A DNA stretch of 64,000 nucleotides from Candidatus Bathyarchaeota archaeon (GTDB lineage Archaea; Thermoproteota; Bathyarchaeia; Bathyarchaeales; Bathycorpusculaceae). Where the stretch lies: positions 46,600-110,599 of the forward strand of contig CAVTZU010000017.1 of the NCBI GenBank assembly GCA_963739305.1, read 5' to 3'. Shown piece by piece: positions 53,220 to 58,911 of the stretch (positions within the stretch are counted from its first letter, which is position 1; each line of letters starts with the position of its first letter). The position numbers were made by a program, and so were the translations under genes. The notes below the pieces were generated by a model. The model was not told where the DNA came from and did no database searches. It saw only the letters and a program-made list of their open reading frames with translations.

Positions 53220-53684
53220 CTAGAATTGCTGCAGAACATCCTTCTTCTCAACGATATATCCGCAATAATGGCATTTGAGCAGCAGAGGTTCCTCACTATC
53301 TACATAGAACTTGGGTTTGACGGGCTCGTTACTGTTACTTATACAAGCGGGATTTGCACACTTAATGATGTTGTCGATGGTTTTGGGCAGTTTTACCTCT
53401 TCCTTTCTCACAACCTTATAGTCACGAATAATGTTGATACTGGCATGTGGCGCAATCAAGGCGATCTTGTGCACCTCTTGCGGCTTGAGCTCCCTGCCCT
53501 CTATCTTGACAATGTCTTTACGCTTCAACCGCTTACTGGGCACGTTAATAGCTATAGTTATGGGGCCTTCCTCTTTGCCAGTGATCCCCAAAATCCTGAC
53601 GACATCAAGCGCGTGCCCACTGGTGATATGATCAATCACCGTGCCATTCTTGATTTTTGAAACACGCAATTCGGTTTCAGACAT
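53220..53684 (-). CDS. pyrI: Aspartate carbamoyltransferase regulatory subunit
   Basis: IKNGTVIDHI, KDIVKIEG, CANPACIS, CHYC. Confidence 0.95.
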   Translation of the reverse strand: MSETELRVSKIKNGTVIDHITSGHALDVVRILGITGKEEGPITIAINVPSKRLKRKDIVKIEGRELKPQEVHKIALIAPHASINIIRDYKVVRKEEVKLPKTIDNIIKCANPACISNSNEPVKPKFYVDSEEPLLLKCHYCGYIVEKKDVLQQF

Positions 53685-53815
53685 TCGGAATTCCAACCAA
53701 GACATTTATGCGACGAGCCTAGATAAAAAACTTGACTATCAAATTAGGCATAAGGAGGCGTGAAGGATTACCAAGGCTTATTAGTCTTAAAGCTGGTTTT
53801 TCTTTCGTGATCCAT

Positions 53816-54283
53816 GTGGCAAGAAAGAAAACTTGGACTGAAAAGCTAGAAGATAGCAAGGGCCTTCCAAGAGTTGAGAAGATCAATGACAGGATGAGCA
53901 AAGTGTGGGGTTGCGGAACGATGGTAATCCCTGCGCCAAAAGAAGTTGATGAAATCATGCGGAAAGTGCCGGCGGGAAAAGTGATAACGATCAACGAAAT
54001 CCGTGCAGCATTGGCGAAGATACACAACACGACGATCTGCTGCCCGATCACGACGGGCATTTTTGCTCGCATCGCGGCCGGCGCGGCCGTAGAGCAGCAG
54101 GGCAAGGTTGAGCACATTACACCTTACTGGCGAACACTGAAGAGCGGGGGAGTGATAAACGAGAAGTACCCCGGAGGGATCGAAGGGCAGAAACGGCTTC
54201 TCCAGAAAGAAGGGCACAAGATAGTTCAGAAGGGCAAGAACTCCGTTGTAGTGGAATATGCGCGATCATTGGCAAGAGTGTGA
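53816..54283 (+). CDS. MGMT-family / alkyltransferase-like DNA-binding protein
   Basis: VPAGKVIT, CCPITTG, PYWRTL (no PCHRV catalytic Cys), QKRLLQKEG. Confidence 0.8.
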   Translation: MARKKTWTEKLEDSKGLPRVEKINDRMSKVWGCGTMVIPAPKEVDEIMRKVPAGKVITINEIRAALAKIHNTTICCPITTGIFARIAAGAAVEQQGKVEHITPYWRTLKSGGVINEKYPGGIEGQKRLLQKEGHKIVQKGKNSVVVEYARSLARV

Positions 54284-54320: not shown

Positions 54321-55301
<981 letters not shown>

Positions 55302-55321: not shown

Positions 55322-57532
55322 TCATGTTGCGGCTAATCTATCGAAAAATGTCAGCGTTCCTACGGCGCCACATGAAGGACACTTGCGCAGTAACCCAAAC
55401 CAGCTCTTCCTGCAATTGACGCAGTACGTCATTTTGCGATCGTAAGTCCAGAAGCCTACGCGAGTCTGAATGAGTTGGTCCTTCAAGGTCGCAAGTTCTG
55501 AAGGTTCATGCTTGCTTTCGCCTAGATCTATGACTGTCATGCTTCCTCCGTCTTGAACCTCCGCTATCTTGCTTTCAAAATCCAAATATCCAGATGGGAG
55601 TTTATCCCCCAAGGCTGCGAATCCTTCAAAAGTGGAGTAGAATGGTTTCTCTCGTGTGCCAGATAATTTGACTTTGGCGATTCCGTATCTTTCAATGTCC
55701 GCCTGCGCCAGCCTTTCAGACGCTTGAAAACTTGGCATTACGGCGGGAGATAATTGTCTTCCTCGCCTTCTGCTTATCTTGTGAATGTAAGTGGCGACGT
55801 TTTCAACGAGTTCAGCAGCGAAGTTCGAAGCTTTCTCGTCGGTGACGTTTCTTTCAGTGAAGACTTCTGCCGCTTCTCTTAGTCCGACGAGGTTCACGAT
55901 TCGCGAACAGTTTTCAAGCCTGAAGTATCGATCCCCATCTCCGCCTTGCATGACGAAGGGCAGCAGTTTTTTGCCGTGGTTTTTGAGGGCGCGATATTTG
56001 ATTTCCAACGCGCGGTTGGACATTTCGATTCTTTCTTTCAGAGTTTCGATGAATCTGGTTTTGTCTTTTCCCGATTCGTAGGCAATGCGCGGTACGTTCA
56101 AGGAAACTGTACCCAGACAGCCGGTGCGCAGAGTGTCTGTTTCCCAGTCTCCATTCGGATCTACATCAAGCCTGGAGGCTGTGGAAGAGAATATTGAATA
56201 CTTGCGGTTTTTCTGAGTGACGTTGGCGAAGTAGGGGATGCCTCTTTCCGCGGCTAGAACCATGGATTTCAGAAGCAGCGCTTTTGCTCTTTCGTCAGCA
56301 AAGCTTTCCGCGCGAATGTTCAGTATTATGCTTGGTCTGATGAGAGGTTTGCGTTCGCTCTCCTCGGTGAACAATTCGAGAAGAAGGCTTGCCAGCAGCT
56401 GGGTCTGCTCAGCGAAATCTGAATACGAACCTAGACGTTTCCCGTCGGGTCCGAATGCTGGTTTCTTTGCCAAGAAATCTGGGGTACTTAGCTCTAGACC
56501 CAGGGAAACGTCGACGTGTTGGGCCAGATTTCGGATGAAAAAACGTAGAGCATTCTTTGTTCTTACTGATTCTATGTCGGCGACAAAGGGCGCCAAGAAT
56601 ACGTTGAAGTAGGCGAGTGTCTGTGATTTCTCGACTTCTCTGGCGGTGTGAAGACACACGTTGAAGGTCAGGTCCAACGCGGATTCCAGGTTCTGTGGCG
56701 GAGGGACCAGGGGTTTTATGGGGTCTGTCCTTTCCAGGTCTAGGCCCTTTTCGATGAAGAATCGTAAGTCATGGCTTATTTCGCTGGGCTTTAGGATCCA
56801 AGAGCTTAGGCCGTTGACATGTAGGGCGCCCGACAGGTGTGCGTCTGCAATGTCTCTGGGAAAGATGTTCAGGAGAGCGTATTCTCTGAAGATGGCTCTG
56901 CCAGCCAATTCTTGTATGGATGCTGGCTCGTGAGAACCGCTACTCTTCTTAATATCTAGTAGGCCCATCACGTCGTGTACGGGGATTCCTAAGCGAGTGA
57001 GTTTGTGCCGGTATTCTTCGAAGCCTTTTTCTATCAAGATCGCGTTGACGACTTCTCTTACGAGGGGGGCAGTCAAGTACTTGGTTTTTGAATGAATTAG
57101 TTGTTTTTCCGCTTCTTTGGCCACTTTTTGGGCGAGGTCGACGGGCATCTGCGCCTCTCGGACCAGAGAATTCGCGATTTTGTTTGCGTCAAACTCTTCA
57201 AGGGCAGGGCGGCTTGTGCGGACAAGGGTGCTTTTGGGTTTGAAGGCTTTCTTATCGATTTTGTCTGCGACGTCGATGACCATTTTGCCGAGCTCGGTTA
57301 GCAGATACTTCCTGGCTTCAACGTCGGCTTCGATCAGGTCTGCTTTGAGCAGAAACTTGAGATGGTAGGCAAACCTTCCCGCATCTCGACTCGGGTTCAT
57401 CTTTAGGTTACTCATCAACTCCGTGTATGAAAGTGCGCCCTTGTCAAAGAAGAGGTTTAGGATTTGCAGTCTCAGAGGTGAAGAAACAGCTTTGAGTACT
57501 CTTACCCCGCGAACTCGTTGTGGCGCAGACAA
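55322..57532 (-). CDS. ArsR-like wHTH + ATP-cone + degenerate class III ribonucleotide reductase (NrdD-like) fusion
   Basis: N-terminal HTH (RLQIL..LSYTEL..FAYHLKFL), ATP cone (FDANKIANSL..VREVV), TRLGIPVHDV, AHLSGALHV, SLNVPRIAY, C-terminal CxxC..CPSCG. Confidence 0.85.
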   Translation of the reverse strand: MSAPQRVRGVRVLKAVSSPLRLQILNLFFDKGALSYTELMSNLKMNPSRDAGRFAYHLKFLLKADLIEADVEARKYLLTELGKMVIDVADKIDKKAFKPKSTLVRTSRPALEEFDANKIANSLVREAQMPVDLAQKVAKEAEKQLIHSKTKYLTAPLVREVVNAILIEKGFEEYRHKLTRLGIPVHDVMGLLDIKKSSGSHEPASIQELAGRAIFREYALLNIFPRDIADAHLSGALHVNGLSSWILKPSEISHDLRFFIEKGLDLERTDPIKPLVPPPQNLESALDLTFNVCLHTAREVEKSQTLAYFNVFLAPFVADIESVRTKNALRFFIRNLAQHVDVSLGLELSTPDFLAKKPAFGPDGKRLGSYSDFAEQTQLLASLLLELFTEESERKPLIRPSIILNIRAESFADERAKALLLKSMVLAAERGIPYFANVTQKNRKYSIFSSTASRLDVDPNGDWETDTLRTGCLGTVSLNVPRIAYESGKDKTRFIETLKERIEMSNRALEIKYRALKNHGKKLLPFVMQGGDGDRYFRLENCSRIVNLVGLREAAEVFTERNVTDEKASNFAAELVENVATYIHKISRRRGRQLSPAVMPSFQASERLAQADIERYGIAKVKLSGTREKPFYSTFEGFAALGDKLPSGYLDFESKIAEVQDGGSMTVIDLGESKHEPSELATLKDQLIQTRVGFWTYDRKMTYCVNCRKSWFGLLRKCPSCGAVGTLTFFDRLAAT

Positions 57533-57720
57533 GTTTCTCCGGTTCCCTGAAGCAGTAACCGTAGTATTTGGGTGTCAGGGTTTAAAGGCGTTAGGGAACC
57601 TTGTTCCATACTGCGAGATTTTCAGTCCGATGCGTGGAGTCGCAAAAAAATGCGGAGAAGAGAAAATGTGAATTCCAGTTTCTTGAGTGGCTTTCTTCTT
57701 TCGCCGTATATATTCTTTTT

Positions 57721-58911
57721 TTAGGCTTCGACGAATTCTTTGACTCTTCTCATTCCTTCGATTATGTCGTCTTTTGCGGTTGCGTAGCTGAATCTCACGT
57801 ATTCCTCGGTTTGGCCTAGGTTTTTTCCTCCGAAGTGTATGTCCGCTAAGCAAGCGACTCCTTTGTCGAGGAGCATTTTTCGGAATTCTTCAGCCGACTT
57901 TGCTTTGACTTTCTTGCAGGCTTTGGTGACGTTTGGCCAAACGTAGAATGCTCCGCCTGGGCGCAGGCATCTGATTCCTTCGATGTTGTTGAGTAGTTTC
58001 ACAATGAGGTCTCTTCTTTCTTTGAAGCTTCTGGCCATTTTCTCTGATTCGTCTTGTGGGCCGTTTAGTGCTTCTACGACGGCCCATTGTGTTGGTTGGT
58101 TGGCGCAACTGTCGGTGTTGGTCATCCATCTGGCGAAGTGTGGGGCTAAGGTCTTATTTGCCGCGTAACCCAGTCGCCATCCGGTCATCGCGTAGGCTTT
58201 TGAGGCGCAGTCGACCATGATTGTTCGGTCGAGCATGCCGTCGATTGAAGCGATTGACTGGAATGGTGCGTCGTAGGCCAGGGTTGAGTATACTTCGTCG
58301 GAGTAGACCCAGAAGTCGTGGTCTGTCGCTAGGTCTGCTATTGCTTTGAGTTCTGTTTTCTTTAGTACTCCGCCTGTTGGGTTTTGCGGGGAGTTGATGA
58401 TGAGTAGTTTTGTTTTCTTGGATATTCTTTTTTTGAGGTCTTCTATGTCGAACGCGAATTCTTTCTCTTCTACCAGTGGTAGGGGTACGGGTTTGGCGCC
58501 GTGGGCTGTTATTTGGCTCTGGTAGATTGGGAAGCCAGGGTTTGGATAGATGACTTCGTCGCCTGTTCCATAGTCGGTGGTGCATAGGACGCTCCAGTAG
58601 ATGAAGGGTTTGCCGCCGCAGGCGACTGCTACGTGTTCTGGTTTGACTTCGACTCCTCTTGTTCTGTTGAACATGGCTGCTGCGGCCTGTTGTAGTTCAT
58701 AAATGCCGGCTGAGGGTGTGTACCCGGTTTTTCCTGCTTTTATGGCTTTGATTGCGGCTTGTTTTATGTTTTCTGGGGTGTCGAAGTCTGGTTGGCCTAT
58801 GCAGAAGTTCTTTATGTTTGCTCCTTCTCTGAGTCTTTTGTTTACTTCGGCGAGGACTGTGAAGGCGTTTTCGGTGCCTAGTGCGCCCGTTCTTTTGGAT
58901 ATACTTGTCAT
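57721..58911 (-). CDS. Class I/II PLP-dependent aminotransferase (aspartate aminotransferase-like)
   Basis: IGQPDFDTP, NSPQNPTG, SDEVY, SKAYAMTGWRLGY. Confidence 0.93.
   Translation of the reverse strand: MTSISKRTGALGTENAFTVLAEVNKRLREGANIKNFCIGQPDFDTPENIKQAAIKAIKAGKTGYTPSAGIYELQQAAAAMFNRTRGVEVKPEHVAVACGGKPFIYWSVLCTTDYGTGDEVIYPNPGFPIYQSQITAHGAKPVPLPLVEEKEFAFDIEDLKKRISKKTKLLIINSPQNPTGGVLKKTELKAIADLATDHDFWVYSDEVYSTLAYDAPFQSIASIDGMLDRTIMVDCASKAYAMTGWRLGYAANKTLAPHFARWMTNTDSCANQPTQWAVVEALNGPQDESEKMARSFKERRDLIVKLLNNIEGIRCLRPGGAFYVWPNVTKACKKVKAKSAEEFRKMLLDKGVACLADIHFGGKNLGQTEEYVRFSYATAKDDIIEGMRRVKEFVEA

Follow-up and report, generated by a model that had tools for sequence, protein, structure and literature searches.

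Here we describe a gene of Candidatus Bathyarchaeota archaeon (assembly GCA_963739305.1) which lies at positions 55322–57532, on the minus strand, of a 64,000-nucleotide stretch of contig CAVTZU010000017.1 (positions 46,600 to 110,599; the whole stretch is called the window below). Its product of 736 amino acids consists of a winged helix-turn-helix (HTH), an ATP-cone, a non-catalytic barrel of the class III ribonucleotide reductase NrdD and a Zn ribbon, and the name dNrdD is used as a label for this protein and its family. From domain content and gene position, we consider dNrdD to be probably a non-catalytic paralogue of NrdD which works as a nucleotide-responsive regulator of transcription. 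On the best reading it would be functionally similar to NrdR, while being a member of neither the NrdR family nor the family of functional NrdD enzymes.

The gene starts at a TTG and runs through 736 codons in a single frame that no stop interrupts, according to the open reading frame list and its translation. The domains, all given here on the minus strand, occur in the order which the original prediction had proposed from the letters of the DNA. The ArsR-like winged HTH (57272–57499, residues 12–87) is matched in Pfam by PF24038 (DUF7347, 28.0 bits) and PF01022 (HTH_5, 24.9 bits, cut-off 22), both exceeding their cut-offs, and its residues H57, Y76 and G82 are invariant across 61 diverse members of the family (alignment A1). 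It is followed by an ATP-cone of the V-R-T-S type (56993–57223, residues 104–180), for which PF03477 gives 29.3 bits at residues 104–174 with a cut-off of 25.8, and by a barrel of the NrdD type which lacks catalytic and substrate motifs (55433–56932, residues 201–700), for which PF13597 (NRDD) gives 215.6 bits at residues 201–723 with a cut-off of 26.2. The protein stays under the cut-off of the NCBIfam equivalog for NrdD, TIGR02487 (244.6 vs 326.35 bits). The Zn ribbon CVNC...CPSC, of the form CxxC...CxxC (55370–55423, residues 704–721), has its cysteines at C704, C707, C718 and C721, and all four are kept in 121/121 close homologues and are invariant in alignment A1 too. Basic residues of the ribbon are also fixed in these homologues (K717 in 121/121, Lys or Arg at 708 in 121/121, Arg or Lys at 709 in 119/121), and the same columns are variable in working NrdDs; the ribbon could have a new role, e.g. 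in contact with nucleic acid.

The AlphaFold2 model of dNrdD, made with 61 family members as input, has a mean predicted local distance difference test score (pLDDT) of 88.0 and a predicted template modelling (TM) score of 0.77, the barrel being mostly above 90 in pLDDT. The N-terminal 96 residues are modelled, at a pLDDT of about 90, as helices 4–15, 19–31, 36–42 and 47–63, a hairpin at 67–78 and a helix at 80–96. This succession, in which a beta hairpin separates the first four helices from the fifth, is the layout of an ArsR-type winged helix. When the model was compared with the PDB by Foldseek, ranks 1 to 36 were all NrdD chains, and with the NrdDs of T4, T. maritima and P. copri the target-normalised TM score is 0.72–0.76 at 13–18% identity.

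The residues needed for catalysis were compared by aligning 93 dNrdD-type proteins with 9 canonical NrdDs, and 121 close homologues of dNrdD were used in addition. dNrdD and the working NrdD of its own genome are 23% identical over 684 amino acids (BLASTP). Both in this pairing and in the alignments, E251 (56780–56782, minus strand), which belongs to the string KPSEISHDL (residues 248–256), stands where NrdD has its first active-site Cys; the column holds Cys in 9/9 canonical NrdDs and in 3/93 dNrdD-type proteins, and Glu in 115/121 close homologues. The finger loop, read as FSSTASRL (56168–56191, minus strand, residues 448–455), is without the thiyl-radical Cys; two alignments of the loop disagree by two residues, and the stretch from 445 to 458 is free of Cys throughout. 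A Cys anywhere in the finger-loop stretch is present in 23/121 close and 18/93 diverse relatives, against 9/9 canonical enzymes, and residue 453 in the close homologues is Phe in 75, Cys in 20, Leu in 16, Ser in 5, Thr in 2 and Met in 1 (the six commonest states listed). The flap motif N-x-N, found in 9/9 canonical NrdDs, is deleted in dNrdD and is a gap in 86/93 proteins of its type, and the HxHD motif reads H238-V-N240-G241, its second His being present in 9/9 canonical and 13/93 dNrdD-type proteins. The roles of HxHD, the NxN flap, Gly711 and Tyr712 in NrdD are given in PMC11226230.

The protein ends on a vestigial glycyl-radical loop, FFDRLAAT, followed by the stop codon (55325–55348, minus strand, residues 729–736). 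In the broad alignment F730-D-R-L-A-A-T736 matches the canonical Y-S-R-I-T-G-Y, with R732 in the canonical Arg column, A735 in that of the radical Gly and T736 in that of the Tyr, each of these being kept in 9/9 canonical NrdDs. An older pairing of 'VGTL' with 'VGYL', by which 'VGTL' was the remnant Gly loop, was superseded by this alignment. Gly is found in the radical column in 17/93 dNrdD-type proteins, the tail is kept as CPSCG..TL..FDRF..T in the 121 close homologues, and a finger-loop Cys together with an R..G[YFW] tail occurs in 0/93. In the aligned sequences dNrdD is cut exactly at the radical glycine and the domain after R-x-x-G-Y is missing, and by the same comparison of residues it is shown to be incapable of glycyl-radical chemistry. 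The three strings FSSTASRL, KPSEISHDL and FFDRLAAT had been quoted beforehand as signs that the finger-loop Cys, the second Cys and the Gly-Tyr were lost; this reading holds against both the own NrdD and the canonical set, and the lost residues are not retained elsewhere in the protein. Other barrel residues are kept as in working NrdDs, i.e. N479 (93/93), P481, R482 (82/93), R607 (85/93), Y632 (90/93) and G662-G663.

A frameshift hiding an RxxGY end was a further concern, and it is excluded because the 121 close homologues terminate at about the same place, the stop of the neighbouring pyrB gene is 20 base pairs (bp) away, and metagenome contigs are free of indels. In four peat-metagenome runs of one study, contigs span the entire gene with zero indels within it, and the only indels lie upstream, at 57644 and 57662; one contig crosses the stop codon with 0 differences, and its run may be the source sample. 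No RNA run containing dNrdD was listed among the 20 runs found.

The selection on the gene was estimated as the ratio of nonsynonymous to synonymous substitution rates (dN/dS) by the Nei-Gojobori method, on 14 orthologue pairs of 83–95% identity, drawn from four clusters of relatives and not independent of one another; pairs were restricted to 80–99.5% identity among 34 loci. The ratio for the whole gene, a check which the original prediction had suggested, is 0.09–0.28 and shows purifying selection; by region it is 0.01–0.30 for the winged helix, 0.00–0.21 for the ATP-cone and 0.10–0.36 for the barrel, the last 36 codons being too noisy. The winged helix and the cone have the lowest ratios and are the most constrained parts of the protein. 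A word-indexed search gave at least 120 homologues among the matches listed, all at least 61% identical and nearly all of 690–777 amino acids, whose names come from Bathyarchaeia or Bathyarchaeota records. An exhaustive search of 50%-identity representatives gave 347 proteins at E<=1e-30, and among the best 150 of these many span residues ~10–730 at 30–45% identity. The fusion to the HTH is conserved, at least 60 residues preceding the cone in 87/93 diverse dNrdD-type proteins. In an even sample of 151 Bathyarchaeia genomes, an HTH-bearing dNrdD match is found in 107 (0/27 in family f18 with the dNrdD query used), and four Promethearchaeota loci carry the gene. The family is thereby shown to be old, widespread and under purifying selection. 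One further locus, on DASPPK010000031.1 which is labelled 'Candidatus Acidiferrales bacterium', has a dNrdD-pyrB pair 67% and 89% identical to the genes of the window, and it is probably an archaeal contig misplaced in a bacterial bin.

The ATP-cone is the best-conserved part of the 93 dNrdD-type proteins, with V104 kept in 93, R105 in 90, S107 in 88, E112 in 86, F114 in 91, I119 in 93, R175 in 88 and R180 in 93. T106 and S107 (T in 77/93, S in 88/93), which are flanked by R105 and by Arg or Lys at 108, occupy the columns of Lys-Arg in the own NrdD. In the NrdD of P. copri, according to PMC11226230, Lys7 and Arg8 of the first hairpin of the cone contact the phosphates. The specificity-site residues of this enzyme include Glu290 and Asn298. 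The V-R-T-S cone is seen also in the nearest working NrdDs (T in 6/9, S in 5/9) and in the nrdD which follows dNrdD at locus L045, and because of this we read it as a subtype of the cone and not as decay.

The pyrB gene for aspartate carbamoyltransferase (54366–55301, plus strand; TIGR00670 402.2 bits, cut-off 236.95) is convergent with dNrdD, with 20 bp from stop to stop, as had been noted in the original prediction together with a hint at a context of nucleotide metabolism. This context has proved to be deep synteny: pyrB is the convergent neighbour at 14/14 named loci, the four of Promethearchaeota included, and among the 64/107 carrier genomes with pyrB on the same contig within 12 kilobases (kb) it is downstream and convergent in 63/64, in 38 of them within 400 bp. 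Counts of nrdD were made with PF13597 and rest on the best 150 of 274 matches. At least 25 genomes have a canonical nrdD immediately after dNrdD in the same orientation, and the order dNrdD, nrdD, convergent pyrB is found in at least 18; among the matches listed, the nrdD genes that follow dNrdD fall in three PF13597 score bands of 513–554, 467–488 and 638–643 bits. In six genomes of family f11 (G005, G011, G017, G029, G053 and G074) it is a copy of the class II reductase gene nrdJ which directly follows dNrdD. Within the same best 150 matches, 43/107 carriers are without a PF13597 match better than E=1e-88, some of these genomes being incomplete. These data show that dNrdD accompanies functional reductase genes of two classes and persists where a class III enzyme is missing. 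A regulator with its target agrees with this better than the remnant of a tandem duplication, or a protein tied obligately to NrdD, would.

Some details of these reductase loci were also recorded. Two loci, L043 (G136:C9) and L044 (G077:C16), have a spacer between dNrdD and nrdD, and that of L043 holds a short frame ending ...IVVYTSSGCPRCAMLKEW, which looks like a glutaredoxin/NrdH-type CxxC protein placed between dNrdD and the working nrdD. Several canonical NrdD/NrdJ relatives (P0175–P0268; in G002, G010, G034 and G142) are frames of 1000–1700 amino acids which are matched in two or more separated stretches, the pattern expected for inteins.

The genome under study has working reductases of its own, for which a check had been suggested: an intact nrdD with nrdG beside it, and nrdJ. 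The NrdD on contig C14 scores 656 bits with PF13597 and reads MCCRL in its finger loop and, past the Zn ribbon, RVVGYL. In the window itself, as had been predicted, no nrdG was found, and only a generic radical S-adenosylmethionine match of 35.8 bits is present, far under the cut-off of 131 bits. The genome also encodes a true NrdR, above the cut-off of TIGR00244 with 158.2 bits, in a bacterial-type operon at C14:25030–28232 where nrdR (25099) is followed by nrdD (25899) and then by nrdG. The own nrdG is split over two frames (C14:27677–28232, about 3279–3951 of locus L001), its N-terminal part with CxxxCxxC stopping near C14:27835 and the remainder lying in another frame from 27831, the cause being either an error in the assembly or a true frameshift; in the latter case the organism would be unable to activate its class III reductase.

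NrdR, as defined by TIGR00244 above its cut-off, occurs in 20/151 genomes, which are 16/16 of family f1, 4/27 of f18 and 0/108 of the others. In f1 nrdR stands beside nrdD, and dNrdD, retained in 16/16 genomes, abuts pyrB with no nrdD between them. The bacterial-type NrdR module of f1 holds the spot before nrdD that dNrdD holds elsewhere, and since dNrdD is kept in all 16 genomes which have this module, the analogy with NrdR is supported and a role beyond nrdD is shown. In its own genome dNrdD is not the sole reductase regulator, because a true NrdR is encoded before nrdD, and it is probably not the regulator of nrdD. The 2.3-megabase genome was also scanned with a 16-base NrdR-box consensus; one properly spaced NrdR-box-like pair was found, 36–69 bp before nrdR, and no paired site was found near dNrdD, pyrB or nrdJ with this consensus, a result which concerns the sites of NrdR itself.

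The comparison with known systems can be made domain by domain. Like NrdR, dNrdD joins an ATP-cone (PF03477) to a DNA-binding module, its gene is typically placed directly before a reductase operon, and in Bathyarchaeia the distribution of NrdR complements the dNrdD-nrdD adjacency. Unlike NrdR, which has about 150 amino acids and a Zn ribbon at its N-terminus for DNA binding, dNrdD has 736 amino acids, an N-terminal winged helix, a whole dead reductase barrel and a C-terminal Zn ribbon of NrdD origin, and TIGR00244 is not among its NCBIfam matches. With NrdD (PF13597, TIGR02487; structures 8p23, 4coi, 1h78 and 9d3x) it has in common the order of ATP-cone, barrel and Zn ribbon, the matching fold and the motifs NLPR, YY(T/S) and GG, but both active-site cysteines, HxHD, NxN and Gly-Tyr are missing, the glycyl-radical domain is cut off and an N-terminal HTH is added. 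The N-terminal 90 residues resemble ArsR/SmtB proteins in matching HTH_5 and DUF7347 and in their helix-rich model with a beta hairpin; unlike the ArsR/SmtB metalloregulators, dNrdD stays under the NF033788 cut-off (28.7 vs 55 bits) and its winged helix is fused to a sensor body of 640 residues.

The proposed mechanism is as follows. The winged helix would bind promoter DNA, and the ATP-cone, perhaps together with a remnant effector site in the barrel, would bind ATP/dATP or another nucleotide. The binding of the nucleotide may shift the oligomeric state or the arrangement of the domains, the barrel serving presumably as a dimerisation scaffold, and DNA binding would then follow the nucleotide pool as in NrdR. 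In the f1 lineage dNrdD would control other genes, probably its own and possibly pyrB/pyrI or nrdJ.

The upstream regions were analyzed for a possible operator over 200–260 bp before dNrdD (25–30 orthologues), pyrB (33) and nrdJ (16). The promoter core of dNrdD is predicted at 57580–57594 (minus strand), 54 nucleotides before the start codon, and is composed of a transcription factor B recognition element (BRE)-like CTAACGCC and the TATA element TTTAAAC; an alignment of the regions upstream of 30 orthologues shows this block to be conserved, and GGAG stands at 57537–57540 upstream of the start. No operator distinct from the core promoter was told apart in these 30 regions of dNrdD. Some candidate words were examined and dropped: the 9-mer AATASTACG, common to the own dNrdD and nrdJ upstream regions, is not kept in 15 other nrdJ promoters; TATCTAGT, common to the pyrB and nrdR upstream regions, is the TATA box of pyrB; the only genomic copy of the promoter word CTAANNTTTAAAC lies away from dNrdD; and the words common to the dNrdD promoter and the dNrdD-nrdD spacer at five loci are TATA-like only.

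Several points weigh against a nucleotide-responsive regulator. Each functional step of this reading is drawn from domain content and gene position. The operator search returned none, the upstream regions of dNrdD, pyrB and nrdJ sharing nothing beyond BRE/TATA-like blocks and a GAGG that resembles a Shine-Dalgarno sequence. A convergent arrangement, such as dNrdD has with its conserved neighbour pyrB, is unusual for a regulator and its target, and in the own genome dNrdD adjoins no reductase gene, nrdD being on another contig. The replacement of the phosphate-contacting Lys-Arg by Thr-Ser also means that binding of ATP/dATP by the cone cannot be assumed. The idea of a pseudoenzyme regulator analogous to NrdR, which the original prediction had put forward, is supported by the catalytic loss, the separate intact nrdD and the conserved HTH fusion, and is refined by the true NrdR before nrdD in the same genome and by the Thr-Ser of the cone.

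A wider role can be imagined, with dNrdD as the master switch that ancestrally governs the supply of DNA precursors in archaea, though we regard this as doubtful. Its origin would be an nrdD duplicate that became joined to a winged helix; the allosteric hardware of the reductase, i.e. the ATP-cone with perhaps the former specificity site of the barrel, would read the nucleotide pools, and the output would be the transcription of whichever reductase follows dNrdD plus pyrimidine synthesis. In f1 an imported bacterial nrdR-nrdD-nrdG module would have taken over the control of nrdD, leaving dNrdD with the rest of the regulon, and family f1 would then be a natural experiment which separates two regulators. 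Less probable, and on balance unlikely, is that dNrdD in this lineage mainly controls pyrimidine synthesis (pyrB and pyrI) and not the reductases, its tail-to-tail pairing with pyrB reflecting a coupling of the two. The convergent pyrB at every named locus and in nearly all genomes where the two lie within 12 kb agrees with it, and so does the retention of dNrdD throughout f1, where nrdD has its own NrdR; however, nrdD stands between dNrdD and pyrB in at least 18 genomes, and the pairing may thus have been handed down from an older dNrdD-nrdD-pyrB block, family f11 has pyrB elsewhere and nrdJ after dNrdD, and the promoters of dNrdD and pyrB are without a common motif.

We think it improbable that dNrdD is a pseudoenzyme partner which tunes a working reductase or another protein, with an HTH that is only autoregulatory or does not bind DNA. 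Canonical NrdD is a dimer, the barrel (dN/dS 0.10–0.36) and Zn ribbon are under selection, and dNrdD adjoins nrdD in at least 25 genomes; against this, 43/107 carriers lack a canonical NrdD (within the best 150 of 274 matches), dNrdD also precedes the class II nrdJ, its HTH is along with the cone the most constrained part, and the nrdD of the own genome sits on a different contig. It is very improbable that dNrdD is still an enzyme, with a chemistry independent of both the glycyl radical and the thiyl Cys: the near-invariant polar residues of the barrel (N479, R482, R607 and Y632), and G662-G663 also, might suggest an active site, but working NrdDs conserve them too and they need not mark a new one, the old active-site positions vary freely (residue 453), the substrate flap is deleted and a DNA-binding domain is fused. 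That the gene is decaying or is an assembly artefact is refuted. The genome was binned from a metagenome, with a contamination of 7.82%, and its nrdG is split between two frames, but the 736-codon frame of dNrdD is intact, homologues of the same length occur in hundreds of assemblies, dN/dS is 0.09–0.28 and independent contigs are indel-free within the gene. A non-catalytic NrdD paralogue acting as a nucleotide-responsive transcription regulator is therefore the reading we favour.

Other genes near dNrdD are described here for completeness. The gene pyrI for the regulatory chain of aspartate carbamoyltransferase lies at 53220–53705 on the minus strand (PF01948 115 bits at G000:C17:99990–100268) as an open reading frame of 161 amino acids. 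It is not co-transcribed with pyrB, from which it is divergent on the opposite strand across a 248-bp spacer, and this divergence is seen also in the close relatives L013–L016 and L021; an open reading frame of 132 amino acids without a Pfam match is noted between pyrI and pyrB at 53719–54117 (minus strand). The possibility that dNrdD replaces PyrI was ruled out by the presence of pyrI, the plus-strand 'orf163' being its antisense shadow. Directly upstream of dNrdD lies an aspartate-aminotransferase-like gene (57721–58911, minus strand; PF00155 216 bits; NF041091 305 bits, under its cut-off), which is not kept at the other 14 loci, and in many relatives a sequence resembling a transfer RNA seems to lie upstream of dNrdD, judged by reading the upstream strings by eye.

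The literature offers some background for these data. NrdR is rare in archaea (PMC9110341, Nat Commun 2022), and the ATP-cone is essentially confined to reductases and NrdR (PMC11226230), according to the portions of both papers that were available. Neither a dead NrdD nor a protein of the HTH-ATP-cone-NrdD type was found described in the available texts, the papers listed on the subject dealing only with NrdR and NrdD, and supplementary trees or RNRdb tables could hold such a clade; no papers on DUF7347 were found, and the available portion of the ribonucleotide reductase phylogeny preprint 10.1101/2022.04.23.489257 makes no mention of helix-turn-helix, DNA-binding, non-functional or inactive. 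New here are the exact coincidence of the truncation with the radical glycine, the cone subtype V-R-T-S common to the nearest enzymes, the ancestral dNrdD-nrdD-pyrB block, and the co-existence of dNrdD with, and its displacement by, a true NrdR module in f1.

The public names of dNrdD homologues include 'anaerobic ribonucleoside-triphosphate reductase' among the matches listed, and by such names metabolic reconstructions would wrongly assign a class III reductase to about 40 of the 107 carrier genomes. If our reading is true, dNrdD would be a candidate for the missing reductase regulator in Bathyarchaeia and their Asgard relatives, and it would also be a clear case of a pseudoenzyme which has been recycled as a transcription factor.

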